Positions 2,216 to 63,250 of a DNA stretch of 64,000 bases are shown here, in pieces. The stretch spans positions 2,112-66,111 of the forward strand of contig JAXFQS010000084.1 of NCBI GenBank assembly GCA_034178815.1, given 5' to 3'. The stretch is from Kiritimatiellia bacterium (GTDB taxonomy: Bacteria > Verrucomicrobiota > Kiritimatiellia > RFP12 > DVOR01). The first letter of the stretch is position 1. The number at the start of each line of letters is the position of its first letter. Made by a program: the position numbers and the translations under genes. The notes below the pieces were generated by a model, which did no database searches, was not told the origin of the DNA, and was given only the letters and a program-made list of their open reading frames with translations.

Positions 2216-2740
2216 ATGAGAGCATTCGTTAGCATCATCGCCACCCTTTGCTTGCTATCTGCCGCCCACGCGCAAACCAACCAACCGAGGCCAGAGGTGC
2301 GTACCCGCAGCGCCCAGAGAACCCCGTCCTCCGGGCCGAACCAACGCCTCGTGCAATACCTCTGCCGCCCATCCGTCGCCCGCAAAGTCGGCGTTTCCCC
2401 AGAGACCGTCGCGCGCATCAAACAGCAACTCGAAGCAATAGCCGTCCAAGAACGCCCAATCCGCGAAGAACTCGACAAGAAGTTCCGCGCCAATGTCCGA
2501 CTCGCCAAGAAAATCCTCTCCTCCCGCGACGAAAAACCGGAGGCTTTGATAGCCGCCACCGAGGCCATCAGCGCCCTGCACGCCAAACTCGCCCTCTTGG
2601 ACATCCAGAAACTGCTGGTACTGCGTGACAACCTCACCCCTGAGCAGAGCGAGTGCCTCCTCAAATGCATCCGCGAAGAGCGGCGGATGCCTACCAAACG
2701 CCCCGCCAAAGGGATACCGCCCACCCATGACACCAAGTGA
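2216..2740 (+). CDS. secreted/periplasmic helical protein with LTPEQ motif (Spy/CpxP-like, tentative)
   Basis: N-terminal signal peptide (MRAFVSIIATLCLLSAAHA), LTxxQ-like motif, helical charged repeats; function inferred weakly. Confidence 0.4.
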   Translation: MRAFVSIIATLCLLSAAHAQTNQPRPEVRTRSAQRTPSSGPNQRLVQYLCRPSVARKVGVSPETVARIKQQLEAIAVQERPIREELDKKFRANVRLAKKILSSRDEKPEALIAATEAISALHAKLALLDIQKLLVLRDNLTPEQSECLLKCIREERRMPTKRPAKGIPPTHDTK

Positions 2741-3368
2741 CATTCCCGCCGTCCATCGGCTACTGCTCGCCCGCTTCAAAGTCACCCCATCGCCCATTAT
2801 CGAACTCATCGCGGCGCAAACTCAAGACCCATTCAAAGTCCTGATTGGCACCATCCTGTCGGCCCGGACGAAGGATGCCTGCACCGCCGGTGCTTGCCGC
2901 CGGCTGTTGCCGCTCATACACGAACCCGAAGATCTGGCTCGGCTACCAATCGAGGAGTTGGAGCGGTTGATTTTCCCCGTCGGGTTCTACCGTGCCAAGG
3001 CGCGGCATCTGCACGACCTGCCCGCTGTGCTCGGCGAGAAGTTCGGCGGGGTCTTGCCGCAGACGGTCGAAGAACTTTGCGAACTGCCGGGGGTGGGAAG
3101 GAAAACGGCGAACCTCGTGGTGGCGGTTGGATTTGACAAGCCTGCCGTCTGCGTCGATGTTCATGTGCATCGCATCAGCAACCGTCTCGGCCTGGTGCAC
3201 ACGAAGTCGCCTTTCGAGACCGAAATGGCTCTGCGGAAGGTCTTGCCGAAGCGCTATTGGAAGACTTGGAACTCCATCATCGTCTCCTTCGGGCAGACGC
3301 TCTGCGCGCCCCGCAATCCCCGCTGTTGCGACTGCCCCATTCGCCGCTATTGCCCCAGCGCAACCTAA
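2727..3368 (+). CDS. nth: endonuclease III (HhH-GPD DNA glycosylase with 4Fe-4S cluster loop)
   Basis: HhH motif LPGVGRKTANLV, catalytic region VDVHVHRI, C-terminal Cys cluster CAPRNPRCCDCPIRRYC; start at internal Met (14-nt overlap with upstream gene). Confidence 0.8.
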   Translation: MTPSDIPAVHRLLLARFKVTPSPIIELIAAQTQDPFKVLIGTILSARTKDACTAGACRRLLPLIHEPEDLARLPIEELERLIFPVGFYRAKARHLHDLPAVLGEKFGGVLPQTVEELCELPGVGRKTANLVVAVGFDKPAVCVDVHVHRISNRLGLVHTKSPFETEMALRKVLPKRYWKTWNSIIVSFGQTLCAPRNPRCCDCPIRRYCPSAT

Positions 3369-3635
3369 TCAGCGGCTGATTGTCCAAGCCCCCGTCCTGC
3401 GCCGCCGCCCGAACCGATTCCGTCAACGGTACGCGCCGCCTGAAGCCTTTTGCCTGCCCGCACGAGGGGATTGCCGCACGCTTGGAGCCCATGCGCCGAC
3501 GCTCGCAAGAGGTACCAACCTAGCGAACCGATTTCTAGTCGACAATGGCGTCCGGGTGTGGTAAACTTTGGGTCGTTTAGGTTGGCACCTTTCGCCACCT
3601 TTCCTACGCACCTTTTTGCCCGAGGATTTTCCGCC

Positions 3636-4730
3636 ATGCTGATACTCGACAACGCCTTTGTCTCCGACTTTCTGGCCGACTTCGCCGAGCAGTCCGGTCG
3701 CCCCGTGCTCGACACGCCCAGCACCCGCTCGCGCCTGTCAGGGCGCCGCATCAACTGGGCCTCCAAAGCCGATTCCGGCCCGCACTACTCCACCTCTGAG
3801 AACGCCATTCCCCTAGTTGCGCAGGGCTTTTTCGGCGAAGAAATCAAGCGTATGGTCGGCTTGATGAAGGACAAAGCCCGCTTCCGTGAAGCCATCGCCG
3901 GCTGCTACCCCACCTTCCGCTGCGTGCGCGTCCCACTCGACGCCTTGAACGCCTGGACGCCAGACTTCTATCCCTTCGTCCTCAAGCCCGCCGTCGGCTT
4001 CCTGAGCGAAGGCGTCTACAATGTCCGAACCCCCGAGGAACTCGCCCGCGTCAAACGCGACATCTTGGATAACGCCCAGCGCAGCGCATTCTCCAAGGCC
4101 GTTGTCGACAAAACACTCTTCATCGCCGAAACCTTCCTCGACGGCCCCGAACTCGCAGCAGACGCCTTCTATCTCGACAACGGAACGCCCGTCATCACCA
4201 ACATCTACCTCCATCCCTTCAACGGCGCAGACGATGTCAGCGACCGTTGCTACATCACCTCGCGCTCCCTCCTCGATCGCTACCTCGAACCCATCCGCCA
4301 GGCCTATGCCACCATTGGCAAAACCCTCGGACTCAGCCGCATTCCCGTCCATGCCGAGTTCCGCGACACCGCCAGCGGAATCGTTCCAATCGAGTTCAAC
4401 CCTTTGCGCTTCGCCGGCTGGTGCACGACCGACTTGACCTGGTTTGCCTACCATATCAACCAGTACCAGCACTACTTCGACCAGCGCCAGCCCCAATTCC
4501 CCGAAGACGACGGGTGCCTTCACTATTTCATGCTCGCCGAAAGGCCCGCAGGCGTCGAGGGGAAACAATGCGACTACGCCGCTCTGCGCCAAGCCGTCCC
4601 CGGACTCGTTGAAATGCGTCCCATCGATTACAACCACAATCCCCTCGCCGCCATCAACTTCGGATCGGTTCCGGGGATGGCGGAAATCGACACCATTCTC
4701 AAGCTCGACATGGCCCAATTCTTCCACTGA
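3636..4730 (+). CDS. ATP-grasp domain protein (putative carboxylate-amine/peptide ligase), first gene of envelope operon
   Basis: ATP-grasp signatures: KDKARFREAI, FVLKPAVG (ATP-binding Lys), ETFLDGPELAADAF, HAEF; start at Met 3636, upstream ORF extension is low-complexity. Confidence 0.6.
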   Translation: MLILDNAFVSDFLADFAEQSGRPVLDTPSTRSRLSGRRINWASKADSGPHYSTSENAIPLVAQGFFGEEIKRMVGLMKDKARFREAIAGCYPTFRCVRVPLDALNAWTPDFYPFVLKPAVGFLSEGVYNVRTPEELARVKRDILDNAQRSAFSKAVVDKTLFIAETFLDGPELAADAFYLDNGTPVITNIYLHPFNGADDVSDRCYITSRSLLDRYLEPIRQAYATIGKTLGLSRIPVHAEFRDTASGIVPIEFNPLRFAGWCTTDLTWFAYHINQYQHYFDQRQPQFPEDDGCLHYFMLAERPAGVEGKQCDYAALRQAVPGLVEMRPIDYNHNPLAAINFGSVPGMAEIDTILKLDMAQFFH

Positions 4731-4741: not shown

Positions 4742-5851
4742 GTGATTCGAATCCGACACATCCGGTCTTACCTTGCGCTCCTGCTCCTCGGCGGTTGCGG
4801 TCAGCCCGTTCCCAAGGCAGAATCCAGACCTCAGGAAACGCCGCCGCCAGAGCCGCCCCCGCTCATCGTCGAGGTTGTTCCCCCCGAACCCGAGCCCTTC
4901 CGTCTCTACGCCCCGACCAGGCAGCACTGCCTCGACGGCAGCCGCGTGACCAACATCTTTATGCACGCTGGGAATGGCAACCCGGAGAGCGGGCTTTTTG
5001 GTTTCCAGCGTGCGGCGGCGGACGGCAGACCCAGGCTCCACGAGGGCATCGACATTGCACCGTTGGCGCGTGACAAACGCCGCCGACCGCTCGATGAAGT
5101 CACCGCCGCCGCAACGGGGACTGTCGCCTATGTCAACCGCCGCGCCGGGGATTCGTCCTACGGCATCTACATCGTCATTCTCCACCAAGCCCCTCATCTC
5201 GGACCTGTCTATACCCTCTATGCACACCTTGCTAGCATTGCCCCCGACATCAAGCCAGGAAAAACTGTCGTTGCTGGCAACCTTTTGGGGCGAATCGGCA
5301 ACACCCCCGGGTTTCCGCTCTCCCGCGCGCACCTCCACTTCGAATGCGGGCTAATCAACAACAACCGCTTTGCCCGCTGGTACCACGACCGCTACCTCAA
5401 GCGCCATCCCCCGAAAAAGAACCGCCCCCGACCTGCCGACCACGGTATCTTCCACGGCTCCAACCTCACGGGACTCAACCCGAACGACCTCTTCCGCATC
5501 CGTGCCGAAGACGCCAGCGTCCCCTTGCTTCCCTACCTCCGAGAGTTGCCCATCGCATTCACACTCCTCTGCAAAACCAATCGCATCCCCGACTACTTCC
5601 GCCGCTACCCCGCCCTCTGGAGCGGGGAGCCCTTCCGCCCGGGAACCATCCGACTAAGCGTCTCGCAGGAAGGGATTGTCCTGCGCGGCACGAACGAACC
5701 CGAATCGAACGAAGCAACAGCCCTCCCCAAAATCCTCGCCGTCAACACCACCCTGCCTGGACTTCTCGGTCGCCGCTATGTACGCCCCGACGGCGCGCGG
5801 TGGAAACTCACACCCTCGGGAGAAGAGTGGCTCGACGCCTTCCTCTACTGA
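4742..5851 (+). CDS. M23 family metallopeptidase lipoprotein (LytM/lysostaphin-like)
   Basis: lipobox LLLGGC, Pro-rich linker, HEGIDIAP (HxxxD) and HLHFE (HxH) M23 motifs; 12-nt gap from ATP-grasp gene. Confidence 0.7.
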   Translation: MIRIRHIRSYLALLLLGGCGQPVPKAESRPQETPPPEPPPLIVEVVPPEPEPFRLYAPTRQHCLDGSRVTNIFMHAGNGNPESGLFGFQRAAADGRPRLHEGIDIAPLARDKRRRPLDEVTAAATGTVAYVNRRAGDSSYGIYIVILHQAPHLGPVYTLYAHLASIAPDIKPGKTVVAGNLLGRIGNTPGFPLSRAHLHFECGLINNNRFARWYHDRYLKRHPPKKNRPRPADHGIFHGSNLTGLNPNDLFRIRAEDASVPLLPYLRELPIAFTLLCKTNRIPDYFRRYPALWSGEPFRPGTIRLSVSQEGIVLRGTNEPESNEATALPKILAVNTTLPGLLGRRYVRPDGARWKLTPSGEEWLDAFLY

Positions 5852-5857: not shown

Positions 5858-6865
5858 ATGGCCGGAATCCGCATCGAAAACCTCACCAAGACCTACCCCG
5901 GCGGCTCGAAAGCCGTCGACAAAATCTCCCTCTCCATTGCTGACGGCGAGTTCATCGTACTCGTTGGCCCCTCCGGCTGCGGCAAGTCGACAACCCTCCG
6001 CATGGTGGCCGGGCTCGAAACCATCACCTCCGGCACAATCCACATCGGAGAACGCCTAGTCAACGACCTCCCCCCAAAAGCGCGCGACATCGCGATGGTC
6101 TTCCAAAACTACGCGCTCTATCCCCACATGAGCGTGGAAGAAAACATGGCATTCGGACTCAAACTCCGCAAAGTCCCGAAAGAAGAGATTCGCCGCCGCG
6201 TCGCCGAAACCGCCGCAGCCCTCGGTCTAGAACCCTACCTCAAACGCCGCCCATCCCAACTCTCCGGCGGCCAGCGCCAACGCGTGGCAGTCGGCCGCGC
6301 CATCGTCCGCCAACCAGCCGCATTCCTCTTCGACGAACCCCTCTCGAATCTCGATGCCAAAATGCGCGTAGAAATGCGCGAAGAGATTCACCGCCTACAC
6401 CGCCGCCTGGGCGCAACCATGCTCTATGTCACCCATGACCAAACCGAGGCAATGACCCTGGCCGACCGCGTCGTCGTGATGAACTCAGGCGTCATTCTCC
6501 AGACCGGAGCACCGTTGGAAGTCTACAACCGACCGGCCAATCTCTTCACCGCAGCCTTCATTGGAACGCCCCCGATGAATCTCGTCCCCGAGGGCGACCG
6601 CATCCTTGGGTTCCGTCCCGAAGATGCCCTTTTGACCGCCGAAACAGGCTCATTCGCGCTCCCCGAGGGTGTCGTGGAACTGCTTGAACCAGTGGGCGCG
6701 GAAACCATCGCCCATGTGAACCTTCCAGGGTGTTCGAGCCGCATCCAAGTCCGCCTTTCTCCCGATGCACCCATCCGCGAAGGTCAGCACCTGTCGCTCC
6801 ACATCAAAGCCGGGCGCCGCCACCTGTTCGACGCAGCCACGGGACAAAGAGTTGCCGACCGCTAA
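5858..6865 (+). CDS. ABC transporter ATP-binding protein, MalK/UgpC/MsiK type with C-terminal TOBE-like domain (no permease adjacent)
   Basis: Walker [10 protein letters not shown], signature LSGGQRQR, Walker [13 protein letters not shown]-loop YVTHDQ. Confidence 0.85.
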
Positions 6866-6871: not shown

Positions 6872-8464
6872 TTGAAGGCCACCATTATGCAGCTCCGCTT
6901 CCCGACCGACACGCGCTGGCGTCTACTCCCGCTGGCCCTGATCGTTATCGCCTATGCCTTCTGGCCGGCAATTTCTTTCACACTGTGGGTTTTCGGAGAT
7001 ACTTCCGAGGACATGGCCTACGGCTGGGTGATTCCCTTGATTGTCGGGGCCATCGTCTGGAAGCGCCGAGATGCGCTCCGTTGTGCGGCGGAGAGCCCCA
7101 GCCTAGTGGGTACGCTTTCGTGGCTGATTGGGCTTCTGTTCTTCTGGATTGGCAGCCGCGGGAACCAGCAACGCTTTCTGCAGTTGGCACTGGTGTGGAT
7201 GGTTTGGGCGATACCGTATGCTTTCTGGGGATGGAGGGTGGCGAAGCTGATGATTTACCCGGCGTGCTACTCGCTTTTGATTATTCCTCTAAGTTTTCTG
7301 GACGCCATCACCTTTCCGCTCCGTCTGGCGTCTTCTTGGGTATCCGTGGCTCTGCTCAATGGTTTCGGCATCGAGGCGAGACGGATAGGAACGGCGCTGA
7401 TTGGAGCGAACTTCCAACTGGATGTGGCGGATCCTTGTAGCGGGATTCGTTCGCTTGTCGTGCTGTTGGCATTGACTGCTGGCTATGCGGGGATTCACCG
7501 CCACTTCCGGTGGTGGACGAAAGCTCTGCTGGTGGCATCTGCATTGCCGCTGGCCTTTCTGGGAAATATCATCCGGTTGACGACGACGGCAGTGGCGTGT
7601 GCCTGTTTCGGGCAAGAAATCGGGATGTACTATCACGACCAGGCGGGGTATCTGACCTTCCCGTTGGTGATGCTGATTGTCCTTGTGTTGGTCGACTACT
7701 TCTCGAATCGGCAGCCGGCTCCGCCGCTTCAACGGGAGACTCCGATTCCTTCCGCGGGGTGGATTTCGCTACTGCCAATCGGCGCCATGATGGGCATCTT
7801 CGTGACTGGCTCCTGGCTTATCCAAAGGCAGCCGCCGCCCGACTATGAGCCCGATTCCTACATTGCCCAGGCGCTTCCGGATGTGCCTGGTTTCACCTCC
7901 TCGTTCGACTTGCATTGCCAGAATCCGGACTGTCTCTTGTCGACCTCCAGCGACAAGAAAGCGTGCCCTCTCTGCGGCGGGAAACTGGAGCGTGTGCCGC
8001 TTGCCGAACTGACGATTCTGCCGTCGGACACGCGTTTCCTGAAGCGCAACTACACGGGGGCGGACGGGGTTCCTCTTCGGGTCAGCGTTTTAGTCTCCGG
8101 GCGCTCGCGGATGAGCATCCACCGTCCGGAGATGTGCCTTCCCGGGCAGGGCTACACGATTTCGGACAGCTATGTGGTGGAGATACCTCTGGCCGACGGT
8201 TCAACGGTCAAGGCCAACTGTGTCACGGCCGCGAGGCTGGGCGAACCTCCGGTTGGACTGCTCTATTGGTTTGAGAATCCGCACGGTAGCGCCTACTCGC
8301 ACTATGAGCGAATTTTCTCGGATATTTGGGCGCGGACGGTGCACAACCGGATGATTCGATGGAGCGCGATTCTGATTATGCGCGAACGCCCCTACGATGA
8401 GGCGGCGCTGGAGCAGACGGCGCAGTTTCTGAGCCTGTGGCGGCCTCGGGTGGTGCGCCGCTGA
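6872..8464 (+). CDS. exosortase (8-TM transpeptidase) fused to C-terminal EpsI-family domain containing a Cys4 zinc-ribbon insert
   Basis: exosortase motif VADPCSGIRSL within polytopic membrane region; C-terminal EpsI signature SIHRPEMCLPGQGYT; insert CQNPDCLLSTSSDKKACPLCGG. Confidence 0.75.
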   Translation: MKATIMQLRFPTDTRWRLLPLALIVIAYAFWPAISFTLWVFGDTSEDMAYGWVIPLIVGAIVWKRRDALRCAAESPSLVGTLSWLIGLLFFWIGSRGNQQRFLQLALVWMVWAIPYAFWGWRVAKLMIYPACYSLLIIPLSFLDAITFPLRLASSWVSVALLNGFGIEARRIGTALIGANFQLDVADPCSGIRSLVVLLALTAGYAGIHRHFRWWTKALLVASALPLAFLGNIIRLTTTAVACACFGQEIGMYYHDQAGYLTFPLVMLIVLVLVDYFSNRQPAPPLQRETPIPSAGWISLLPIGAMMGIFVTGSWLIQRQPPPDYEPDSYIAQALPDVPGFTSSFDLHCQNPDCLLSTSSDKKACPLCGGKLERVPLAELTILPSDTRFLKRNYTGADGVPLRVSVLVSGRSRMSIHRPEMCLPGQGYTISDSYVVEIPLADGSTVKANCVTAARLGEPPVGLLYWFENPHGSAYSHYERIFSDIWARTVHNRMIRWSAILIMRERPYDEAALEQTAQFLSLWRPRVVRR

Positions 8465-9585
8465 TGAACCTTTTCTCGCATCTCTCCGAAGAGGAGGACA
8501 GGGAGTTCCTGTCGCGGCAGATTCTCACCTGCATCGGAAACAAGCGAGCACTTTTGGGGCCGATTGCCGATGCGATAGGGGTTGTGAGGAAGGCGCTCGG
8601 TGGGGGAAAAATGCGTTGCTTCGACCTCTTTTCAGGGAGCGGAATCGTCTCGCGCCTGTTCAAGCAATTCGCCTCGCTCGTGGTCGCCTGCGATCAGGAA
8701 CGCTACGCCTCGGTGGTCTCCAGGTGCTACCTTTCCAACCGCCGTGTACTGGCGGAAAAGGAGTTCGCCAACTGCTTCGAAGAGTGGAAGAACTGGGTCG
8801 AGAAGAACCTCGAACCGGGCTTTCTCACGCGCCTCTATGCGCCCGCGAACGATGCCGACATCCAGCCGGGCGAGCGGGCCTTCTACACCCGGGCGAATGC
8901 CGAAATCCTGGATACCGCCCGCCGCGCACTCGACCGCATCGTTCCCCCGCGCTATGCCGACTTGCTGCTGGGGCCGCTCCTTTCCGAAGCCTCGATCCAC
9001 GCCAACACTTCCGGCGTGTTCAAGGGCTTCTACAAGAATCGCAAAGGCACCGGAGCGTTCGGCGGCGAAGGTCGAAACGCGCTCACGCGCATCTGCGGAA
9101 AGGTCGTTCTGCAACACCCCGTCCTCTCCCGTTTCGACTGCGACAGCCTCGTCCTAGAAGGCGACGCCAACGCACTCGCCGCGACAGCCCCGGAGGTCGA
9201 TCTGGCCTATGTCGACCCGCCCTACAATCAACACCCCTACGGGTCGAACTACTTTATGCTGAACCTGTTGGCTGACTACCGGGAGCCGGATGCCGTCAGC
9301 CCGGTCAGCGGCATTCCGCGCAACTGGAACCGGTCGGTCTACAACAGCCGAAAGGAGGCCGCACCGGCCTTCTTCAGCCTGCTGGAAACCATCCGCGCCA
9401 AGTACCTGCTCGTCTCCTACAACTCCGAAGGATTCATTCCGCACGCCGAACTGGAAGCCTGCCTGGCGCGGCTCGGGCAAGTCACCTCGACCGCCATCTC
9501 CTACAACACCTTCCGGGGAAGCCGAAACCTCCGCGCGCGCGCACCGCGCGTCATCGAGTACCTCTTCCTCGTCAAGCGCGCCTGA
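8464..9585 (+). CDS. Dam-family (D12 class, alpha group) N6-adenine DNA methyltransferase, apparent orphan
   Basis: motif X-like IGNKRALLGPI, motif I DLFSGSG, motif IV DPPY (DLAYVDPPYNQHPYG); start ATG overlaps exosortase stop (TGATG); no restriction endonuclease gene nearby. Confidence 0.7.
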   Translation: MNLFSHLSEEEDREFLSRQILTCIGNKRALLGPIADAIGVVRKALGGGKMRCFDLFSGSGIVSRLFKQFASLVVACDQERYASVVSRCYLSNRRVLAEKEFANCFEEWKNWVEKNLEPGFLTRLYAPANDADIQPGERAFYTRANAEILDTARRALDRIVPPRYADLLLGPLLSEASIHANTSGVFKGFYKNRKGTGAFGGEGRNALTRICGKVVLQHPVLSRFDCDSLVLEGDANALAATAPEVDLAYVDPPYNQHPYGSNYFMLNLLADYREPDAVSPVSGIPRNWNRSVYNSRKEAAPAFFSLLETIRAKYLLVSYNSEGFIPHAELEACLARLGQVTSTAISYNTFRGSRNLRARAPRVIEYLFLVKRA

Positions 9586-9717
9586 CGGCGACTAGGCAGG
9601 AGTCGCCTGCGTTGATACCAACCTTTCGGGCGAAACGATAGCCACCACACATGCCCCAAGGTGCCTATCCGACCGTGTGAAAGGTTCCCACCTATCCCCC
9701 TCCCCTAAAACAGAAAC

Positions 9718-9742
9718 GGGAGGTTGCGATAGGCAACCTCCC
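9718..9742. repeat. hairpin GGGAGGTTGC-gata-GGCAACCTCCC in convergent intergenic region; motif family member / bidirectional terminator candidate
   Basis: 10-bp perfect stem. Confidence 0.5.
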
Positions 9743-9768
9743 TCAGAGGGACACAGCCTGTCGAACGG

Positions 9769-12700
9769 CTAGAAGTGGCGCGGCCCCAGCGCCGGGCCAA
9801 GCGAACGCTCCTGCTGAAGCAGTTTCAACGCCTCGGGGATACGCTGCCTCAGTTGCGACACCTGGCTCAACCGCTTCAGCGCCGTCTCGCCGCCAACCTT
9901 GAGCGCCTGAAGCAACGCCTGGTGCCCATACTGCACCTGCCCTACTTCGTAGTAGAGAATTGCCAAGTTCCCCCACATCATCCAGTCATTCGGACAGAGT
10001 TTCAGATAGCGGGAATAGATGCTCATCACGGGCTTGTACGCCTGCGCCTGAAGCGCCGCTTGGAGCAGCGTCTGCAATTGTTCAGGCGAGAGATTGGGAT
10101 ACTTCAACGCCCGATCGATAGCCGTTGCCGCCGCCTCCAAGCGGCGCATTGTCGCCAGCACACGGGCAATCGTGCAAAGATCGGCAGGCGCCAAATTGGG
10201 AATCTTGAGCAGTTGCTCGTAGGCCTGCCCCGCGTGAAGCCCATCGCCCAAGTCATAATAGGCGGAAGCCAGCGTGGCGAGTTCCTTCGGAGAAATGGTT
10301 CCATTGCCCATTTTCGGCGCCAACGCAGCAACAGTCTGGCGCGCCTTGAGCACCCCTTCGAGGTTCGCGCAAAGACCAAGCGAACGCGTATTCTTCGGAT
10401 CTCTGGCGTTGAACTCGCGCAGCACGCGAAGCGCTTCCTCCAGCCGGTTTTGGGGAATCAGCACCTCTTGAACCAGGCGGAAGTTGGCCTCCGGGCTGAC
10501 CGGGTAGAGCGCACGCCCCTGCTCGAAAGCAATCTCGCTCTCGCGCCTCATGCCGCGATTGGCATAGAGCCCCGCCAACGCGCAACGCAACTTCGAGAAA
10601 GATTTCTGCGCGACCAAATCGCGACGGAATTTGCGGTCACGGGTCAACCGCCGCAGGTACCAGTCCCAGAAATCCAAGTCGGCATTCGCCGTCCTTCTGT
10701 CCAGCGGAGTCTCCTTCGCGTTGATCTTCATAATCAGGCCGTGCGGCGAGAGGTAAGGATACATCCACGGAATGACATAACTCTCTTCGAGATAGAAGTC
10801 GTGGCGAGCGATATTCTTCTCCCACATCATACGGCAAAGGATGCCGTTGATTTCCATGACCCCGAGTGCTCCTGAGACTTGAACGCGGCCGTTTTCCACC
10901 CGCAAATCGGCGTTGGCGGCGCGCTTGCCCTGATTGACCTCTTCGACATAGATTTGGAACGCCTTTGCCGAATCATCCGCCGAAGGGATCCACATCTGAT
11001 TGCCGTAAAGATCGCGTTCGACCGACATATAGGTGCCATCGGCGAGGGCATTCTGCGTGATGAGAAAGACATCCGGCCGCACATTCGCCGCATAGATCAT
11101 ATAGGTCGGCACGAAACGCCCTGGATCGGTTCCGCCGAAGAAGACGGCATTCGTGGTCATTGCCGGAGGATAGAGCGGATTGGGCAGAGGTTCTTCGTCG
11201 GGGGCGAGTTCTTCACGAATCGCGTCCGCCCCGCGCAACTGGTAATTGCCGAACTGCCAACCATAGTCGTGCCCATTCTGCTCGGCGGCACTGGCCTTGA
11301 AAACCAGATGGTCGTTCATAAAGTTCTCCCATACCGGCACGAGCGGCACCATCAGGGCAAGCACCGTAGCCCCAAGGCACGCCGGACGGAAGCAACTCGG
11401 CAGGTACTTGGCGCACACCTCCGCGCCAACGAAGAGCGCCAGAATCAACCCGTAGCCAATCCAGAGGGAATAGAGACCGTGGGAGGAGATGAACTTCACC
11501 TTCTGGATGAAGTAGTCCTGCAAATCGCCCGTGGGGTTGGCCAAAGCGATGAGCATGACCGACATCACCAGAAAGGCCAACATCGTGCCGATGAGCCATT
11601 GGCGGCTAAGCGGCGAAAACTCCTGGTGAAGCACGCAGTCGGCATCCGTCTTGCTGCCAGATGGGAGGAAGTTCCAAGCAAGCAAAAGCGCGCCGAATGT
11701 CAATCCAAATCCGAGGAAGATTGAGACAACACTGATGAGAACGGGCAAATGAGTGTGCCATATTGGAGTGTGCCACATTGTCGGCAGGACAGCCAACAAG
11801 ATACGCGAAACCAACGCCCCGATTCCCAGCACGATTCCGACAATCGCCAAGCCGCGCGTGATACCCTCGGCGGTCATTCTGTCACGCCAGGAATCGCGGG
11901 CTATCGAGACCACTTGCGACAGCCCAATGGTCACGAATCCAACGGCGCTGAGCAACACCATCCCGCCCATCAGATACTTGTCGATACGCCAAAGCGGCTC
12001 GGTCTGGAAGAGTTCTGCTATGAAAACCACCAGGGCGCAGAACAGGAAGAGCACAACGGCGGGCAGCAGCATCCGGATTCGGCGATTGCGCCAGATGAAG
12101 TTCCAGGCGGAGAATGGCAGAATCGCCAACGGCGCGACCAGCAGGGTGAATTGGACGCGCACATCGGTGAAGTAGTCGCCCAGTTGCTGGAGAAAGCGTT
12201 CAGTGAAGATGCTCTGGGCCGAAATCTGCTCGTACTGCCCGCGCGTAATGGCGTGCTTGAAGCCTTCCCAAGTCCGCGGATAGCCCCAGTTCATCGGGGG
12301 ATTGCGCAGGTCGGAGACGATTGGCATGTAGGCGTAGAAACTCACGCCCAATTCGCAGAAGAAGATGGTCGCGGCGACCGTTCTTCCGTTGGGCAGACAA
12401 ATCAAAGCCAGCCCGAGCAGGAGGAAGTTCCACAACACCGGCCACCAGAACCACCAGGTGCTGGGGTGGGACAGTCCTAGGAGCGCACCTTTGCGCAACA
12501 GCAGGTAGACCGTCAACTGCACAAACGCCACCGCCACCGCGAAGAAGGTGGCGCCTCGGGTCAGCGCGGATGTGACCGTCAGATAGACTAGTAGCGCCAC
12601 GACCACAACACCGACCGAGAGCCAATCCTGTATAGGACCGCGGAACCCTGTCGGTATGGATTGGGTAGGGAGCATTCCTATGACCACCAGCAAAACCAAC

Positions 12701-13905
12701 GCAACTACGCCAAGGGCGACAACAATGGGAACCAGGTCGGAGAAGCGTCTGCCCTGGTTGGAGAGCAATCCGCCGATGGCCGACAACCCGATTGCGACCA
12801 GAACGAGGAGTCCAATCCAGCAATAGGTCGCCGGCGCAATCAAAGGTGCCCAGTCGAGATGGGCGTCCACGACCGGAGCCGTGGTCGAGAACCTAGCGGC
12901 AAGGGCGACAAGCACCGCGCCGACGATTAGAGGAGCCGCGAGGAGCAACATCTGCCAGTCAAGCGGCCTCTTGGCAAAAGTATTGAGGCGCGAATCCGGG
13001 CGCGAAACGGCAACCTTGGTCAGAAGCGTCAACGGCACGACAAGGCAGAGGCAGGCAACGCCCGAAACCAGCAGCCCGGCGTGCGGATAGGCGAAACGCG
13101 CCCCTGGTTCAACGAGTGGACGCAGGATGCAAGGGGTCGAACTGGTGGCTCCGGGGAATGCCGTAGGCAGGGCGCCGAGCTGCAACATCCAGGCCGTCAG
13201 AAGGATGGGAATCGCCACCAGAACAAAGTCCCGGAAAAGGCTGGCGTTGCGCATGAAGATGATGAAGGCGAGCGGCACCGCCGCCAGCAGGAGCACCTGG
13301 TAGTTGGTCAGTCCGAGACCAAAAACAAAGGCCAACAGCCAGAGCGTTTTGTCGCGCGGGGCTTTCATCCACTGGTAGGTCAAGAGAAACACCCACATCA
13401 GGAAAAGCGCACCAAGAGAGTAGACCTCGACAATCGTCGACTGAGACCACATCACCGGAGAGAAGGCAAAGGCCAGTGCGCCGCCAACTCCGCCGGCCCA
13501 ACTGAACAGCGTGTCAAAAGCGGAAGACTTCTCCTCCTCCCGTCCGTTCCCACCGCGCAAATCGCTGAGCATGTCAGAGCCGGATCGCGTGATGAGCATC
13601 GCCGTGATGCCAGCCGCCAAAGCGCCCGCAACCGCCGAAGCCAGCGACACGGCGTAGGCCGGCGTAGGCTGGCCTCGGAAAGTAACCCAGTCGAACAGAC
13701 GGCAGAAACCCCAACAGATCATCGTCCAGATGGGATAGCCGGGCGGATGGGGAACGCCGAGTGCGTTGGCGGCGGTAGCCAACTCGCCCGAATCTTCCAA
13801 CCCGACAGAGGGCCCCAAGGTGAAGAAGTAGACGAGGAACGCCACGAGTGTGCCGGTCCAGAACGAAGCCCAATCGACGCGGCGGAAGAAGGAAGTGTTT
13901 TGCAT
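9769..13905 (-). CDS. giant polytopic membrane protein: N-terminal DUF2723 (GT-C/TMEM260-like glycosyltransferase fold) plus many TM helices and C-terminal TPR repeats
   Basis: N-terminus FFTLGPSVGLEDSGELATAANALGVPHPPGYPIW typical of DUF2723; long hydrophobic core; C-terminal TPR-like helical repeats; 21-nt downstream of topA (same strand). Confidence 0.5.
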   Translation of the reverse strand: MQNTSFFRRVDWASFWTGTLVAFLVYFFTLGPSVGLEDSGELATAANALGVPHPPGYPIWTMICWGFCRLFDWVTFRGQPTPAYAVSLASAVAGALAAGITAMLITRSGSDMLSDLRGGNGREEEKSSAFDTLFSWAGGVGGALAFAFSPVMWSQSTIVEVYSLGALFLMWVFLLTYQWMKAPRDKTLWLLAFVFGLGLTNYQVLLLAAVPLAFIIFMRNASLFRDFVLVAIPILLTAWMLQLGALPTAFPGATSSTPCILRPLVEPGARFAYPHAGLLVSGVACLCLVVPLTLLTKVAVSRPDSRLNTFAKRPLDWQMLLLAAPLIVGAVLVALAARFSTTAPVVDAHLDWAPLIAPATYCWIGLLVLVAIGLSAIGGLLSNQGRRFSDLVPIVVALGVVALVLLVVIGMLPTQSIPTGFRGPIQDWLSVGVVVVALLVYLTVTSALTRGATFFAVAVAFVQLTVYLLLRKGALLGLSHPSTWWFWWPVLWNFLLLGLALICLPNGRTVAATIFFCELGVSFYAYMPIVSDLRNPPMNWGYPRTWEGFKHAITRGQYEQISAQSIFTERFLQQLGDYFTDVRVQFTLLVAPLAILPFSAWNFIWRNRRIRMLLPAVVLFLFCALVVFIAELFQTEPLWRIDKYLMGGMVLLSAVGFVTIGLSQVVSIARDSWRDRMTAEGITRGLAIVGIVLGIGALVSRILLAVLPTMWHTPIWHTHLPVLISVVSIFLGFGLTFGALLLAWNFLPSGSKTDADCVLHQEFSPLSRQWLIGTMLAFLVMSVMLIALANPTGDLQDYFIQKVKFISSHGLYSLWIGYGLILALFVGAEVCAKYLPSCFRPACLGATVLALMVPLVPVWENFMNDHLVFKASAAEQNGHDYGWQFGNYQLRGADAIREELAPDEEPLPNPLYPPAMTTNAVFFGGTDPGRFVPTYMIYAANVRPDVFLITQNALADGTYMSVERDLYGNQMWIPSADDSAKAFQIYVEEVNQGKRAANADLRVENGRVQVSGALGVMEINGILCRMMWEKNIARHDFYLEESYVIPWMYPYLSPHGLIMKINAKETPLDRRTANADLDFWDWYLRRLTRDRKFRRDLVAQKSFSKLRCALAGLYANRGMRRESEIAFEQGRALYPVSPEANFRLVQEVLIPQNRLEEALRVLREFNARDPKNTRSLGLCANLEGVLKARQTVAALAPKMGNGTISPKELATLASAYYDLGDGLHAGQAYEQLLKIPNLAPADLCTIARVLATMRRLEAAATAIDRALKYPNLSPEQLQTLLQAALQAQAYKPVMSIYSRYLKLCPNDWMMWGNLAILYYEVGQVQYGHQALLQALKVGGETALKRLSQVSQLRQRIPEALKLLQQERSLGPALGPRHF

Positions 13906-36171: not shown

Positions 36172-39100
36172 TCAAGGCGTTCCTCCAATCTGCTCGGCCG
36201 GCAAGATGCAGGCGGCGACCGCGTGGTTGGCGTAGGTGCTGACCCGGACGGCAATGCGCTGTCCCTTGAGGCGCGGGAAGGGGTCGAGCCAGCCGCCGAG
36301 CAGTTCCATCTCCACCATACCCTTGACGCAGTCTGCCGAGCGCACCCGGAGGTCGATCGGCGAATAGCGGATGCCTGTTCCGAGCGCCTTCGAGACGGCC
36401 TCCTTCGCGCACCAGAAGCGCAACAACATAGCCGGCGCGTCGCCGCAGGATGCCGCGAGATTCTGCTCCTCCTGCGAGAAGACGCCGCGGGCGAATTCCT
36501 CGCTCAAATCGCGCCCCAGCCGTTCGAGATCGATGCCCAGCCGCGCATTCTCCGCCACAGCCGCCACGACCAGCGACGCCGTGTGCGCGATACTCAGATC
36601 GAGTTGGCCCCCCTGCTCCTGCATCCAGGGCCCGATGGCATGCGGCTTGCCCGAATCGTCCGGCCAGACCGCAATGTCCGCCGCGCCCCAACGCTCCCGG
36701 CGCGTCTCCTGCAAATGGCGCCGGACAGCCTCCTTCGCCGCCACGCGTCCCAGCATCCACTCCAGTCGGCGGGCGACCGAACTTGAGTTGTCGTACCACT
36801 CGTCGCGCTCCTGAGGCGTGAGCACAATCATCGCCAGCGTCTTGAGCCAAAGTTCCTGGTTCCCCGTGAAGAATCGCGGCTCGAAGGACTGCACCACCGC
36901 GCCCCATACCGGCACCGGCGCGGGCGGCATCAACTCGTTCGGCAACGGATCGGTGAAATAGTTCTCCGTGGGGCTCAGCGTAAAGTCATAGAGTTTGCGC
37001 GCCACATGCGTGCTGAGTTCCTCCCAGCCGTGGATTTCGACCAGCAGATTCCCCTGCCCGTCGCTCACCGATATGTCCACCGTTAGCGAACGAGGCGTCA
37101 CCCCCGTCAGCCGCAGATAGGCCTTCAACCGCCCGCCGGGCGGAGGCTCCGGCGCGAAAAAGCAAATCGACCGCGCGCGGAACGGAAACGAAATCGCGCC
37201 CTCAAACTTCTCGTGCGAGCGCCACAGCGGAAAGCCCGAGACCACCCCATCGAAAAGGATTGGCGCCACCGCGAAAGCCGGCAACTCCACCGAGGTGATT
37301 GCCTGCGCCGGAGAAGGCGCCTCCAACTCGAAGTCAATCCCGTTTTCGCTCCACGAATCGACATGGCGGATGGTGCGCAATTGGGGCCCCTGGAAGAGTC
37401 GGCGAGGATAGATGTCTCGCCCCGACCAGTTGACCGCACGCGGATTGACCAGAGGATTTGGACAGGCACGGCGCGTCGGAGGATAGGCCGCCGAAAAAAC
37501 CACCGTAGCCTCAAGAGCCGGCCAGGTGAAACCGGAGTTAGGCTGCTCCTTACGCAGTTGCACCTTCACCGCATACTGCCCGTCAATCCCCCACGACACG
37601 CGCTCCGCCCAGAGCCGCACATCCAGCAAGTCCCGCTCGAATCCCAGCCAGCGTTGCGCCTTCATCCCAAGGATTCGCACCACCCGCAAGCCATCCGGCA
37701 GAAGCCTCTGCGCCGCCTCGCACATCAGTTCGATTCCCGTCGGAACCGACAGCAGCGTCATGCCCCGCAACTGCGTATTGATGCGGGATAGTCGCGAAGA
37801 GCCCAGTGCGTAGTCGCGCAAGAACGGATAGTCCACCAATTTGATGGTTGCGTGCAGTTCCACCGAGATGCCCGGTTCCAGCGAGAGCACCCGAGCCTGC
37901 TGCAGAAGCGGCTGGCGTACGCCACAAGTGCGGTCCCCCTGCTCGGCATGCCCCGGCGCAATCGACGCGGGTGACTCAGCCTCGGGCAAAGCCGTTCGCA
38001 CCGGGTTGAGATTCACCCCCCCTTTGAGCGGATTCAAGAGCACATCGGGATCTACCCTTGGCAGAACAGAGTCCAGACGAATCGGCGGAGAAACCTCGCG
38101 GGGAACCGGCGTGTCGAAATCCAACATAACCGCCCCCGTGAACTCGTCAGCCCCAGAAAGATCCAGCGGCAGCGGCAACGCACCCAACTGCGCGATGGCG
38201 TGGCACAACTGCAAACGGTCCGGCCGATGGAACCGGTTGAGCGAAACACTCAAGTGCGGCCGCTCAGCACCCAATACTGCCGAAACCTGGCGCGCCAAAA
38301 GCCCGCGCACACCGGCATCGACAAAGACTCGGACGCCATCTTCATAGAGCCGTTCAACCGTGCCGGCAAAGTCAACCGGATTGAAGAACTGGTCGGCCAC
38401 CCACGCGGGATTCACCCGCTGACCTGCCTCAATCTTCCGATTCTCCGTGGTCGAGTAGATCGGGATTCTAGGGATATCCCGCAACCACGCGGAGCAGAAC
38501 TGGTTCAAGAGCGGCAAAGCCTTCGCCGCCCAAGGCGTATTGAAAGGAAGCGCCAGGTGACGAGCCGTCACGACTCCCCCCTGCGTCTGCATATCACTGG
38601 AGACCTGCGTAGCAATGTCGGGCGCGACGCAGATAAGGTGATAGTCCGGCGCGATGGCTTGTGAAACCACGCAACGCCCGGGATAGTCCGCGGCAATTTC
38701 TTCGACTTTCTGCCGCGCCAGACGCTCCACTGAAAGAACCGCCACGGAAGGCATGTCCTTGCGCGTAGCCAATCGAGACATCAAGCGGGCGGATTCTCGG
38801 ATAGCCCGGACGCGCTTGATGCGCAACTGCTGGTCGATGGTTGCTCCGGCGACGGCGGCGGCAGAGTAGGCCCCGCACCCAATTCCGGCAACCGCATCCG
38901 GCACAAGCCCCAAACGCGCCATCATATCGGTATAGGCGAGATTAGCGGCGTGGACATCGGCAATAGTCACCGCAGCAGTCAAAGCAGGCGGAGCGTTGTC
39001 AGGAGAGGAGGGGCGGACAGGGTAGAGCAAATCCGTCGCAGTGCCTTCGCCAAAAAGAGCGGAAAGGGCCTCCTCCGCCTCCTCAAGGCGTTGCCGGATA

Positions 39101-39495
39101 ATGGGAGAGCAGAAGGCCGCCTCACGGAGCATTTCGGGGTGCCAGGCGGTTGCTCCGGCATAAAGGAATGCGACCTTCCCTATGGGCGGTTCGCGGAAGT
39201 AATAGGTTCCGGCCTTGTCGCGAATGCGGGCAATGCCCGAGCGGATTTTACGGGCGGCGGTGCGCAGGCGATCGTGCAGAGAGAGCGTATCGCCTGAAGC
39301 GACGACCAGCCCCAATCGATGCGGAGCCTGTTTGGCGGCGAGGGCTGAGGTATAGGCGATATCGCGCAAAGAGACGCCCGGCGCATGCTCAAGGTAGGTG
39401 GCAATCCGGTCGGCCTCCTCGGCGAGTGCGTCGTGGGAGTGCGCCCCAATCAGCAGGACGCTCTGTGAAACGGAGGTGTCGCTGAGGTTGATCAT
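36172..39495 (-). CDS. type I PKS-like multidomain protein: KS-AT linker, AT-like domain (nucleophile Ser replaced by Gly; His replaced), PKS-type DH domain, C-terminal Sfp-type 4'-phosphopantetheinyl transferase domain
   Basis: linker region typical of KS-AT didomain; AT-like FLYAGATAW...GIGCGAYSAA (GHSxG->GIGCG), ...ALPFNTPW (HS->NT); DH motif LHATIKLVDYP; PPTase motifs GIDLERL and FWCAKEAVSKALGTG; ATGA overlap with upstream KS-like gene. Confidence 0.65.
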   Translation of the reverse strand: MINLSDTSVSQSVLLIGAHSHDALAEEADRIATYLEHAPGVSLRDIAYTSALAAKQAPHRLGLVVASGDTLSLHDRLRTAARKIRSGIARIRDKAGTYYFREPPIGKVAFLYAGATAWHPEMLREAAFCSPIIRQRLEEAEEALSALFGEGTATDLLYPVRPSSPDNAPPALTAAVTIADVHAANLAYTDMMARLGLVPDAVAGIGCGAYSAAAVAGATIDQQLRIKRVRAIRESARLMSRLATRKDMPSVAVLSVERLARQKVEEIAADYPGRCVVSQAIAPDYHLICVAPDIATQVSSDMQTQGGVVTARHLALPFNTPWAAKALPLLNQFCSAWLRDIPRIPIYSTTENRKIEAGQRVNPAWVADQFFNPVDFAGTVERLYEDGVRVFVDAGVRGLLARQVSAVLGAERPHLSVSLNRFHRPDRLQLCHAIAQLGALPLPLDLSGADEFTGAVMLDFDTPVPREVSPPIRLDSVLPRVDPDVLLNPLKGGVNLNPVRTALPEAESPASIAPGHAEQGDRTCGVRQPLLQQARVLSLEPGISVELHATIKLVDYPFLRDYALGSSRLSRINTQLRGMTLLSVPTGIELMCEAAQRLLPDGLRVVRILGMKAQRWLGFERDLLDVRLWAERVSWGIDGQYAVKVQLRKEQPNSGFTWPALEATVVFSAAYPPTRRACPNPLVNPRAVNWSGRDIYPRRLFQGPQLRTIRHVDSWSENGIDFELEAPSPAQAITSVELPAFAVAPILFDGVVSGFPLWRSHEKFEGAISFPFRARSICFFAPEPPPGGRLKAYLRLTGVTPRSLTVDISVSDGQGNLLVEIHGWEELSTHVARKLYDFTLSPTENYFTDPLPNELMPPAPVPVWGAVVQSFEPRFFTGNQELWLKTLAMIVLTPQERDEWYDNSSSVARRLEWMLGRVAAKEAVRRHLQETRRERWGAADIAVWPDDSGKPHAIGPWMQEQGGQLDLSIAHTASLVVAAVAENARLGIDLERLGRDLSEEFARGVFSQEEQNLAASCGDAPAMLLRFWCAKEAVSKALGTGIRYSPIDLRVRSADCVKGMVEMELLGGWLDPFPRLKGQRIAVRVSTYANHAVAACILPAEQIGGTP

Positions 39496-40865: not shown

Positions 40866-40875
40866 CGGGGGCGGA

Positions 40876-61861: not shown

Positions 61862-62208
61862 CCAATTCCACCGCACTGTAAGCCAGATTCTGTCCCGCCG
61901 AAGCGGTGCGAGTCATTTGTCTAAGCGGCCAACCCGGAACTTGTCCGCCGAAGCGGTGCGGTACGGACAGCACCTCCGTTCCCTATTTGGCCTTGCTCCG
62001 GAAAGGGCTTGCCGCGCGGCGGAGGCTCACACCTCCGCCCGGTGGTCTCTTACACCACCTTTTCACCCTTGCCCGTTGGGGCGGTCTGCTTTCTGTTGCG
62101 CTTTCCGTCGACGCTTTATAGAGGCGTCGCTCCCGGGTTTCCCTCGGGATTTCCCGTCCTGTGGAGTCTGGACTTTCCTCTCTCCGAAGAGAGCGACCCG
62201 CCGTGCGG
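61862..62208 (-). ncRNA. rnpB: RNase P RNA, bacterial type A
   Basis: reverse strand contains GGAAAGUCCAGACUCCACAGG (P4 5'), AGGGUGAAAAGGUGGUGUAAGAGACCACC (P10-12), CCGGAGCAAGGCCAAAUAGGGAA (P15 region), GACAGAAUCUGGCUUACAG (P4 3'); P1 closes UCCACCGCAC/GUGCGGUGGA. Confidence 0.85.
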
Positions 62209-62226
62209 TGGAAAAGGAAATCGGCC

Positions 62227-62928: not shown

Positions 62929-63250
62929 TTCGATCCTTGTGTAAGTAGAACTGACGGTCAAGTCTACCTTTTTGGAGAACTGATGTCAAGGAAAGTGTTG
63001 GAGACCGCCCCGAGAACCCCAGCGGAATCGGGTTGCCGCCTCCGAGAAGGACGCATTCCACCCCAAAAAAGGCCCCGGTTCACCCCGCTTCGTCCCCGAG
63101 AGATTCCGCCGTATTTCTCTTGAAAGCCGATGGACCTTGCGCTACACTATGGGAAGAGGCTGTTGCCGGTCTGCACCGCGCCGACGCAAAAAAAGTCGCT
63201 CAACCATCAAAAAGTCCGCACGGTTTTGCCGCCGGACTGTTTACAGGAGT

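Follow-up and report, generated by a model that had tools for sequence, protein, structure and literature searches.

A predicted solitary N6-adenine DNA methyltransferase of the M.CjeNI family, probably directed at RAATTY, next to an exosortase gene in a Kiritimatiellia bacterium

In a 64-kb stretch of DNA from a Kiritimatiellia bacterium, the whole of which is referred to here as the window, a gene for an adenine DNA methyltransferase starts within the stop codon of an exosortase gene. The original prediction was an orphan Dam-family enzyme with an unexpected coupling to a cell-envelope operon, and the locus thus raises the question of which type of methyltransferase is encoded, which DNA site it would modify and whether its position behind an exosortase gene is of functional relevance.

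As read from the sequence and the translated open reading frame, the gene extends from an ATG at 8464 to a TGA at 9583-9585, whereby the A at 8464 is common to the exosortase stop codon (TGA, 8462-8464) and the methyltransferase start codon (TGATG), an overlap that had been correctly predicted. The three motifs on which the alpha-class assignment had been based are all located at the expected amino acid positions (Table 1), and their order, motif X and motif I followed by a conserved insert of approximately 130 aa and motif IV, is that of the alpha group. In an alignment of 34 family members, G25, K27, R28, L30 and L31 of the motif X region are invariant, and the window protein possesses all invariant residues of this alignment. 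The best-conserved part of the inserted target-recognition region, to which a putative role in site recognition can be assigned, is 67-83% identical to the corresponding loop of Campylobacter, Akkermansia, Treponema and endonuclease-linked members, as compared with 45-60% for the whole protein.

Table 1. Features of the methyltransferase locus, in window coordinates
Feature	Position (nt)	Strand	Product length or position	Basis
ATP-grasp gene	3450-4730	+		Pfam
M23 peptidase gene	4742-5851	+		Pfam
ABC ATPase gene with TOBE_2	5858-6865	+		Pfam
Exosortase/EpsI fusion gene, upstream; TGA overlaps the methyltransferase ATG by 1 base	6872..8464	+		
Predicted adenine DNA methyltransferase gene, intact, solitary, D12 alpha class, M.CjeNI/RAATTY family	8464..9585	+	373 aa	
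Motif X region, GNKRALLGPI	8536..8565	+	aa 25-34	Sequence reading
Motif I, FSGSG, AdoMet-binding FxGxG	8629..8643	+	aa 56-60	Sequence and family alignment
Best-conserved part of the inserted target-recognition region, PLLSEASIHANTSGVFKGFYKNRKGTGAFGGEGRNALTRICG	8974..9099	+	aa 171-212	
Motif IV, DPPY, catalytic	9214..9225	+	aa 251-254	Sequence and family alignment
Convergent intergenic region, 183 bp, three hairpins	9586..9768	.		Terminator scan
TMEM260-like glycosyltransferase gene with TPR repeats	9769..13905	-	1378 aa	Pfam TMEM260-like (5e-33) and TPR

Pfam, PADLOC and the predicted fold agree on a D12 N6-adenine DNA methyltransferase, as had been proposed. The window protein matches PF02086 with 51 bits (cutoff 22), a domain present in 120/120 of the homologues listed, and over its full length the PADLOC Type II methyltransferase model PDLC03257 (4e-102), so profile searches uphold rather than deny a DNA methyltransferase; a match to PF01555 (N6_N4_Mtase) was not obtained with Pfam and the beta-class motif order is absent. 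The AlphaFold2 model (pLDDT 85.6, pTM 0.87), in which aa 180-187 form a flexible loop of low confidence, retrieved DpnM (2dpm) and E. coli Dam as the top matches in a Foldseek search of the PDB, with a probability of 1.00 and target-normalised TM-scores of 0.49-0.55; the matches to 2dpm and 4rtj have E-values of 3e-6 to 1e-5 and 13-15% identity in the structural alignment. This comparison of predicted folds is the sole link to solved structures, as phmmer and the 34-sequence family profile found no methyltransferase match among all PDB chains at E <= 1. The label 'Dam-family' therefore holds in the broad Pfam sense, but not as orthology: sequence-level matches to Dam, DpnM or T4 Dam were not found, an NCBIfam scan returned no family at E <= 0.01 and no Dam model, and the low identity of the folds also rules out a Dam orthologue.

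A 91%-identical methyltransferase is encoded on a separate 16-kb contig (L009), with the same ATG, an ATGA overlap with the exosortase gene and the same upstream gene order. The dN/dS ratio between the two genes is 0.17, similar to that of adjacent genes, and the methyltransferase is under purifying selection. The locus of a sister lineage (L091) provides the counterpart: the ABC ATPase (77% identity) and the exosortase (73% identity) are intact and in the same order, whereas the methyltransferase gene in the equivalent place has acquired at least eight stop codons and a frameshift, with FSGSG altered to FAGRG and DPPY to EPAY. That the gene product is not a DNA methyltransferase but one acting on RNA or protein, or else a dead relic, is suggested by a weak secondary Pfam match to the RsmD-like Cons_hypoth95 family (E 0.008, under its cutoff) and by the lack of a solved structure matched at the sequence level, but is extremely improbable given the full-length match to Type II DNA methyltransferase models, the pairing of relatives with a restriction endonuclease gene and the marked difference from the truly decayed L091 copy. 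With its catalytic and family-invariant residues intact and its low dN/dS ratio, the gene is not a relic; it is a real and intact gene, the predicted function of which is that of an adenine DNA methyltransferase.

Which site would such an enzyme methylate? The Campylobacter jejuni homologue P0175, which aligns with 361 of the 373 aa of the window protein at 45% identity (E 3e-119), is encoded downstream of OPT, bacA, thrS and infC, a gene order which we take to be cj0204-cj0207, such that P0175 presumably represents the cj0208 locus. Cj0208 is M.CjeNI, which according to published methylomes methylates RAATTY with the product RA(m6A)ATTY (PMC3526280; PMC4889913). A conserved solitary RAATTY methyltransferase has been described for 6/6 of the Spirochaetaceae sampled (PMC4752239) and, in a further methylome study, for 112/112 Akkermansia muciniphila genomes (bioRxiv 10.1101/2022.11.07.515285). 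These spirochaete enzymes and A. muciniphila AmuORF1905P are presumed to belong with the window protein to one family, and the genome matches of this family are dominated by Treponema, other spirochaetes, Akkermansia and Campylobacter; literature searches on Amuc_1905, as a possible bridge between the Akkermansia RAATTY enzyme and the family, and on RAATTY in Verrucomicrobia found no papers. The most conserved peptides of the M.CjeNI/RAATTY family are NT[SA]GVFKGF and DPPYNQHP. In a neighbour-joining tree calculated without support values, the window protein is placed beside a Kiritimatiellae clade in which endonuclease-linked and solitary members are mixed.

By sequence homology the window methyltransferase is thus a member of the M.CjeNI (Cj0208) family, and this membership together with the EcoRI-like cognate enzyme of the family makes RAATTY, not GATC, the most likely target. 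GATC is very unlikely because the cognate endonucleases are EcoRI-like rather than DpnII/MboI-like and the M.CjeNI homologue methylates RAATTY, while at 45-60% identity, the level from which specificity is deduced, GAATTC, AATT or another NAATTN site are possible alternatives. Using AdoMet, to judge from FSGSG and DPPY, the enzyme would modify both strands of a palindrome with an AATT core at their central adenines, with 5'-RA(m6A)ATTY-3' as the most likely product in view of the M.CjeNI homology and the partner endonuclease.

This partner is well defined where it is present. The family endonuclease can be aligned with EcoRI (1e-12) and retains the PD...E.K and GNAIER motifs; in C. jejuni it is encoded directly upstream of the methyltransferase, in Kiritimatiellae relatives with approximately 60% identical methyltransferases 5-22 bp downstream, and the two genes are likewise paired on a 6-kb plasmid of Paracoccus. 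PF02963 neighbours occur at L004-L008, L010, L011, L027, L030, L033, L047, L066, L072, L087, L089/L090 and on plasmid L094. Among the 68 genome loci of the family with adequate flanks, the methyltransferase is nevertheless solitary in 59/68 and paired in 9/68, in the latter with an adjacent EcoRI-family endonuclease that keeps GNAIER. As the family usually occurs alone, the finding of a solitary gene is ordinary. Within the 64 kb of the window, a tblastn search with the cognate endonuclease of the family identified neither a homologue nor a remnant (best E 0.25), and PADLOC, run on the 41 window proteins, reported no endonuclease, merely a HhH-GPD glycosylase, which corroborates the initial impression that a cognate restriction enzyme is not within reach. 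The methyltransferase would descend from an EcoRI/ApoI-like restriction-modification module in which the endonuclease was lost.

The gene could alternatively be one half of a working restriction-modification system with an EcoRI-family endonuclease encoded elsewhere on the chromosome. A precedent exists in one Type II system with R and M genes more than 36 kb apart (PMC4752239), and AATT is approximately half as frequent as expected in the window (80 versus 160) and also depleted in L009 (13 versus 38), a depletion that is milder in three Kiritimatiellae loci with a linked endonuclease (L004, L010 and L011) and absent in a fourth such locus (L008) and in four solitary Kiritimatiellae loci (L002, L013, L014, L050). 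However, low AATT is unspecific, as nearly all 4-bp palindromes are depleted (ACGT 0.01, AGCT 0.20, GATC 0.39), and the 25 RAATTY sites of the window versus 27 expected indicate no depletion beyond the low AATT count. The family endonuclease is, moreover, immediately adjacent in every locus where it was found, and it is present neither in the 64-kb window nor on the L009 contig, so we regard a distant partner as unlikely. Avoidance of restriction sites proved uninformative with respect to the target, since RAATTY, GAATTC and AATT are without clear depletion even in endonuclease-linked loci (over 163 kb, 175 RAATTY sites versus 184 expected, 30 GAATTC versus 40, and an observed/expected ratio of 0.98 for AATT).

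Base composition does not set the gene apart as foreign. A slightly lower GC content than that of the flanks had been estimated, a hint of foreign origin which turned out to be wrong: the gene has a GC content of 0.619 (GC3 0.80), above the exosortase gene (0.591) and the downstream gene (0.592), with 0.607 for the window. As a separate observation, ACGT occurs once in the 64 kb versus approximately 134 expected, and the same depletion is seen on the L009 contig. The replacement is synonymous: the threonine codon ACG precedes T in 0/152 cases, with ACC used instead, and the codon pair NAC-GTN is found in 0/108. The methyltransferase gene obeys this ACGT ban of its host. The strictly synonymous nature of the replacements, together with the occurrence on L009, a separate metagenome-assembled contig with a SPAdes NODE-style name, led us to reject an error of basecalling or assembly at a methylated motif.

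Concerning the neighbourhood, the product of the upstream gene combines Exosortase_EpsH (Pfam, 2e-43) with DUF3485/EpsI and matches the NCBIfam exosortase subfamily TIGR02602 (115 bits, cutoff 105.55), while none of the specific Xrt types in NCBIfam is above cutoff. The genes further upstream, from the ATP-grasp to the ABC ATPase gene, are tightly packed with gaps of 6-11 bp, and a promoter-like site was not found between the exosortase and methyltransferase genes. On the basis of gene spacing, the methyltransferase would be the last gene of a probably co-transcribed five-gene operon, consisting of ATP-grasp, M23 peptidase, ABC ATPase, exosortase and methyltransferase genes, with translation probably coupled through the stop/start overlap. 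Downstream, the intergenic region, which is too short for an endonuclease gene, has a terminator-like stem at 9718-9742 and a fold z-score of -4.06; at both hairpin positions, sequence similar by eye, without alignment, is present in L009, and Rfam gave nothing credible for this region. The next gene is convergent, as had been noted, and its glycosyltransferase product, without a PADLOC match, is not an endonuclease.

Does the adjacency to the exosortase gene have a meaning? Synteny was assessed from homologous proteins and the contigs that encode them; when metagenome contigs were scanned for the exosortase protein, 24 patterns matched, 0 of which were confirmed. A functional tie of the methyltransferase to the exosortase/envelope operon, where it might, for instance, control envelope or exopolysaccharide genes as an epigenetic switch, could be read from the stop/start overlap being preserved in L009, from an exosortase gene that precedes a 60%-identical Kiritimatiellae methyltransferase gene (L002/L012) by 5 kb in the same orientation and from the long retention under purifying selection, which suggests some benefit for the host. 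Such a tie is nonetheless very improbable. In L091 the exosortase and ABC ATPase genes have been kept while the methyltransferase decayed, the genes behind the exosortase orthologues of three further loci (L092, L093 and the P0252 locus) are unrelated, with no methyltransferase gene among them, and at over 70 further loci the family methyltransferases adjoin housekeeping genes that are likewise unrelated, recA and eno in Campylobacter being examples. A precedent is E. coli dam, which shares a mixed operon with aroK, aroB, damX, rpe, gph and trpS although no functional link exists. The ABC ATPase gene beside the methyltransferase in L004 and L010, the product of which is 48% identical to that of the window, is unproven as ancestral synteny, since this level of identity is usual for paralogous ABC ATPases. 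A specific methyltransferase-exosortase link is consequently not supported; the coupling that had appeared unexpected is confined to the lineage of the window and L009, and the adjacency is incidental, a chance arrangement of neighbouring genes in one narrow lineage.

Taken together, the gene probably specifies a functional and solitary N6-adenine DNA methyltransferase of Type II, derived from an EcoRI/ApoI-like module, at the probable end of an operon and with RAATTY as the likely target. In the cell, it might confer immunity to re-invading cognate endonucleases or serve epigenetic marking. The retention of the gene, as opposed to its decay in the sister lineage, and its dN/dS ratio would also permit recruitment as an epigenetic regulator in this lineage, whereby RAATTY methylation, kept after endonuclease loss, controls host genes and the coupling to the exosortase operon ties the methylation level to envelope biogenesis; we consider this improbable. 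Regulatory orphan methyltransferases are marked by target sites in promoters that escape methylation (PMC4752239). A solitary adenine methyltransferase of Type II is a common finding, and conserved orphans of this family are already known from Campylobacter, Spirochaetaceae and Akkermansia. The relevance of a solitary enzyme of the M.CjeNI family in this bacterium lies rather in the corrected annotation, M.CjeNI/RAATTY type and not Dam, which predicts protection against ApoI or XapI, and in a compact natural case of the fate of a methyltransferase after endonuclease loss, maintained by purifying selection in one lineage and decayed in the same place on the chromosome of a sister lineage. If RAATTY methylation holds true, mEnrich-seq with XapI, as applied to Akkermansia, could enrich uncultured Kiritimatiellia.

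Among known systems, M.CjeNI shares with the window protein homology over the full length, the same domain order and the highly conserved central loop HxNTSGVFKGFYK...FGGE..NAL. Most members of its family are, like the window enzyme, without an endonuclease partner and located among housekeeping genes, whereas the window gene differs in its host, a member of the Kiritimatiellia, and in its neighbours at the end of the presumed exosortase operon; the Campylobacter, Akkermansia and Treponema members are 45-57% identical to the window protein. The EcoRI-family restriction-modification modules of plasmid pCP157_17 (Paracoccus marcusii) and of L004, L008, L010 and L011 in Kiritimatiellae, for which ApoI/XapI-type specificity is presumed, contain a homologous D12 methyltransferase with 45-62% identity, but the window is without an endonuclease or its remnant and the 183-bp space downstream holds hairpins only. 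The GATC methyltransferases Dam, DpnM and T4 Dam share PF02086 and the order of motif X, motif I, inserted recognition domain and motif IV, and among solved structures come closest to the predicted fold, with E. coli Dam likewise a solitary enzyme in a mixed operon; they differ in the absence of a sequence-level match, at 13-15% identity, and the recognition domain of the window protein is approximately 100 aa larger. CcrM (GANTC) belongs to the beta class, with motif IV preceding motif I and the Pfam domain N6_N4_Mtase, and any essential role of the window enzyme is argued against by the pseudogene in the sister lineage L091; in common with the window enzyme, CcrM is a solitary m6A methyltransferase that is conserved within its lineage.

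The methyltransferase gene runs from an ATG at 8464 to a TGA at 9583-9585 and encodes 373 amino acids. As the original prediction had noted, its start overlaps the stop codon of the upstream exosortase gene (TGA 8462-8464), the two sharing a single base (TGATG). The closest relative found, the Kiritimatiellia MAG contig L009, encodes a 91% identical methyltransferase with the same ATG, which there overlaps the exosortase stop as ATGA, so that 8464 is fixed as the start and the alternative GTG at 8437 was rejected. Upstream, genes for an ATP-grasp protein, an M23 peptidase, an ABC ATPase with a TOBE_2 domain and an exosortase/EpsI fusion follow each other with gaps of only 6-11 bp. Because these four genes are tightly packed and no promoter-like site was found in front of the methyltransferase gene, we infer a five-gene operon in which it comes last. 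The ABC ATPase is of the PotA/MalK type and lacks a neighbouring permease gene, and its location between the peptidase and exosortase genes is common to the window, L009 and the more distant relative L091.

The gene is followed, as also predicted, by a convergent gene (Table), from which it is separated by a 183 bp spacer that contains hairpins only. Three hairpins are predicted (fold -69 kcal/mol, z-score -4.06) and no Rfam family matches the spacer; comparison by eye, without alignment, indicates similar sequence in L009 at the middle nested hairpin (approximately 9620-9686) and at a terminator-like stem (9718-9742). The GC content of the methyltransferase gene, estimated originally as slightly below that of its flanks, is in fact higher (0.619, GC3 0.80, versus 0.591 and 0.592 for the flanking genes; window 0.607).

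Table. Coordinates of features in the window
Feature	Position	Strand	Remark
HhH-GPD base-excision glycosylase	2625-3368	plus	
ABC ATPase (TOBE_2)	5858-6865	plus	
Exosortase	6872-8464	plus	
Methyltransferase	8464-9585	plus	gene under study
Convergent spacer	9586-9768		
TMEM260-like glycosyltransferase	9769-13905	minus	1378 aa, TPR repeats
Polyketide/PUFA-synthase-like genes	36172-41138	minus	
M60-like peptidase/FGE-sulfatase/GDSL lipase fusion, second FGE-sulfatase-domain protein, ECF-type sigma factor	42946-48911	minus	adjoining genes; fusion of 1510 aa
Bacterial RNase P RNA class A	61863-62212	minus	Rfam RF00010, 212 bits

The gene product is a DNA methyltransferase. The motifs by which a D12 class N6-adenine enzyme had been recognized are all found (GNKRALLGPI at residues 25-34, FSGSG at 56-60 and DPPY at 251-254), and this classification is borne out by Pfam PF02086 (51 bits, cutoff 22), by the PADLOC Type II methyltransferase model PDLC03257 (residues 11-372, 4e-102) and by the conservation of every invariant residue of a 34-member family alignment. 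The AlphaFold model built from this alignment is confident (pLDDT 85.6, pTM 0.87), and its best matches among solved structures are DpnM and E. coli Dam. It is most improbable that the protein acts on another substrate than DNA or is inactive. On the other hand, the label 'Dam-family' holds for the D12 class and the fold but not for orthology: a search of NCBIfam returned nothing, sequence and profile searches of all PDB chains gave no methyltransferase among the matches, and the fold alignments with Dam and DpnM show just 13-15% identity. An orthologue of Dam was thus rejected.

The family is revealed mainly by genomic context. In relatives of approximately 60% identity, of which several are annotated as MAGs of Kiritimatiellae or Verrucomicrobia, a gene for a 234-242 aa protein of the EcoRI family (PF02963) lies 5-22 bp after the methyltransferase gene. 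In the EcoRI-DNA complex, the inner AATT is read by the GNAIER segment. The partner endonuclease aligns with EcoRI structures at 1e-12 and retains this segment and the catalytic PD...E.K region. The same pair, annotated as 'DNA adenine methylase' and 'EcoRI family type II restriction endonuclease', is present on a 6-kb plasmid of Paracoccus marcusii. A second homology search with a Campylobacter member as query found the family across this genus including C. jejuni, where the gene follows OPT, bacA, thrS and infC genes, a gene order matching cj0204-cj0207, and the locus is therefore regarded here as cj0208. Its product and the window protein share 45% identity across 361 residues (E 3e-119). 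Cj0208 is M.CjeNI, whose product RA(m6A)ATTY has been demonstrated by SMRT sequencing (PMC3526280, PMC4889913). In a methylome survey, RAATTY was the target of the most frequently represented new family of orphan methyltransferases; its methylation was reported for each of the six Spirochaetaceae examined and attributed to the same methyltransferase as in C. jejuni (PMC4752239). In A. muciniphila, RA6mATTY is produced by AmuORF1905P, an enzyme conserved in 112 of 112 genomes (bioRxiv 10.1101/2022.11.07.515285). Treponema and other spirochaetes, Akkermansia and Campylobacter make up the majority of the 80 best genome matches to the family. Conservation across phyla is highest in the central insert of the protein, chiefly at residues 171-212 (…HANTSGVFKGFYK…FGGEGRNAL…), with 67-83% identity as compared to 45-60% for the whole protein. 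Based on the endonuclease partner, the C. jejuni homology, the published methylomes and the conserved insert, we assign the window protein to the M.CjeNI/RAATTY family, to which the published spirochaete and Akkermansia enzymes presumably also belong; its predicted target is RAATTY.

Within the 64 kb, the methyltransferase is solitary. In agreement with the original prediction that a cognate endonuclease is not within reach, tblastn of the entire window with two cognate endonucleases gave a best match of E 0.25 only, and PADLOC analysis of 41 window proteins produced solely spurious or housekeeping matches; the DpdF match is topoisomerase I. The match to the 'Type II nicking endonuclease' model (3e-17) is the HhH-GPD glycosylase, which could be an ordinary repair enzyme of the endonuclease III/MutY type or a Mig-like T:G mismatch glycosylase, the latter a type associated with m5C methylation. 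The remaining genes are housekeeping (Mur ligase, topA, gyrB/parE-like, EF-G, ribosomal protein S1, tyrS, recO and RNase P RNA, among others). That a cognate endonuclease is encoded unlinked, elsewhere in the genome, is unlikely. The solitary state is the norm for the family: of the 68 loci from species-representative genomes that have flanks of 900 bp or more on either side, an endonuclease is present at 9 and absent at 59. The solitary gene of Akkermansia and Campylobacter resides in conserved housekeeping synteny, in Campylobacter ahead of recA and eno. In C. jejuni GCA_039618805.1 (L089/L090, 4261-4989), an intact gene for a 242-aa EcoRI-family endonuclease separates infC from the methyltransferase gene of the cj0208 type; although the literature describes M.CjeNI as an orphan, some strains at least thus possess its cognate endonuclease.

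A neighbour-joining tree without support values groups the window protein with L009, as sister to a Kiritimatiellae clade in which endonuclease-linked (L008, L011, L010/L004) and solitary loci (L050, L012, L014, L013) are mixed. L009 shows the complete gene order from the ATP-grasp gene through M23, ABC, exosortase and methyltransferase to the convergent TMEM260-like gene and topA. With a dN/dS of 0.17 between the two (neighbour genes 0.07-0.17), the methyltransferase is under purifying selection. L091 has the same order (exosortase 73%, ABC ATPase 77% identical), and the 1.3 kb without called gene after its exosortase contain a decayed methyltransferase copy (2941-4019) of 42-50% identity to the window protein, with at least eight in-frame stops, a frameshift and the motifs FSGSG and DPPY altered to FAGRG and EPAY. 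As this copy follows the exosortase, the methyltransferase already held this position before the two lineages split; it is intact in one and lost in the other, and a remnant of an endonuclease was found at the locus in neither. Other exosortase orthologues (42-50% identity) are followed by unrelated genes. The coupling to a cell-envelope operon, originally considered unexpected, is thus a feature of this lineage, and the exosortase can do without the methyltransferase. A true functional tie between the two, to which the overlapping genes might point, is therefore very unlikely, and we read the adjacency as an accident of the landing site of a restriction-modification module.

The window is virtually devoid of ACGT, with one site (49519) versus approximately 134 expected (O/E 0.01), uniformly along its length. 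Asp, Asn, His and Tyr codons preceding Val end in T in 108 cases and never in C, despite an overall preference for C, and Thr ACG does not occur before a T-starting codon (0/152); the ban acts at synonymous sites. Also depleted are AGCT (O/E 0.20), GATC (0.39), CATG, AATT, CTAG and GGCC (0.50-0.57) and CTCGAG (5 sites versus 28 expected). The ACGT pattern recurs in L009 (3 versus 31 expected) but not in the other Kiritimatiellae loci. L091, at a GC content of 0.495 compared to 0.61 for the window, has no palindrome avoidance (ACGT 29 versus 31 expected), which confines GC shift and ACGT purge to the window/L009 side of the comparison. The pattern as a whole suggests a very strong, lineage-specific selection of the restriction type. 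An ACGT-specific system is not visible within the 64 kb. The methyltransferase gene itself contains no ACGT, and the purge is unrelated to this enzyme.

Among the other genes, one polyketide/PUFA-synthase-like product (1144 aa) combines acyltransferase, PS-DH dehydratase and C-terminal 4'-phosphopantetheinyl transferase domains, and its gene is overlapped by approximately 115 nt by the next ORF, encoding a ketosynthase. The segment with the M60-like peptidase fusion resembles a module for the degradation of glycans or mucin. The RNase P RNA and a mechanically listed ORF (62161-63123) have approximately 50 nt in common, at the 5' end of the latter.

The methyltransferase would be expressed together with the exosortase operon, probably with translational coupling, and would methylate the N6 position of the central adenine in both strands of RAATTY, 25 sites of which, 17 of them GAATTC, occur in the window. 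Roles established for solitary methyltransferases are to protect against cognate endonucleases that re-invade and to set epigenetic marks. As the L091 gene is a pseudogene, at least one relative can do without the function, which speaks against an essential role of the CcrM kind. With CcrM, the window protein has in common solely the solitary state and with Dam solely class and fold, while its sequence places it with the M.CjeNI/RAATTY enzymes, which it would resemble also in the mode of action. The gene adds a member from an under-studied class to an already known methyltransferase family.
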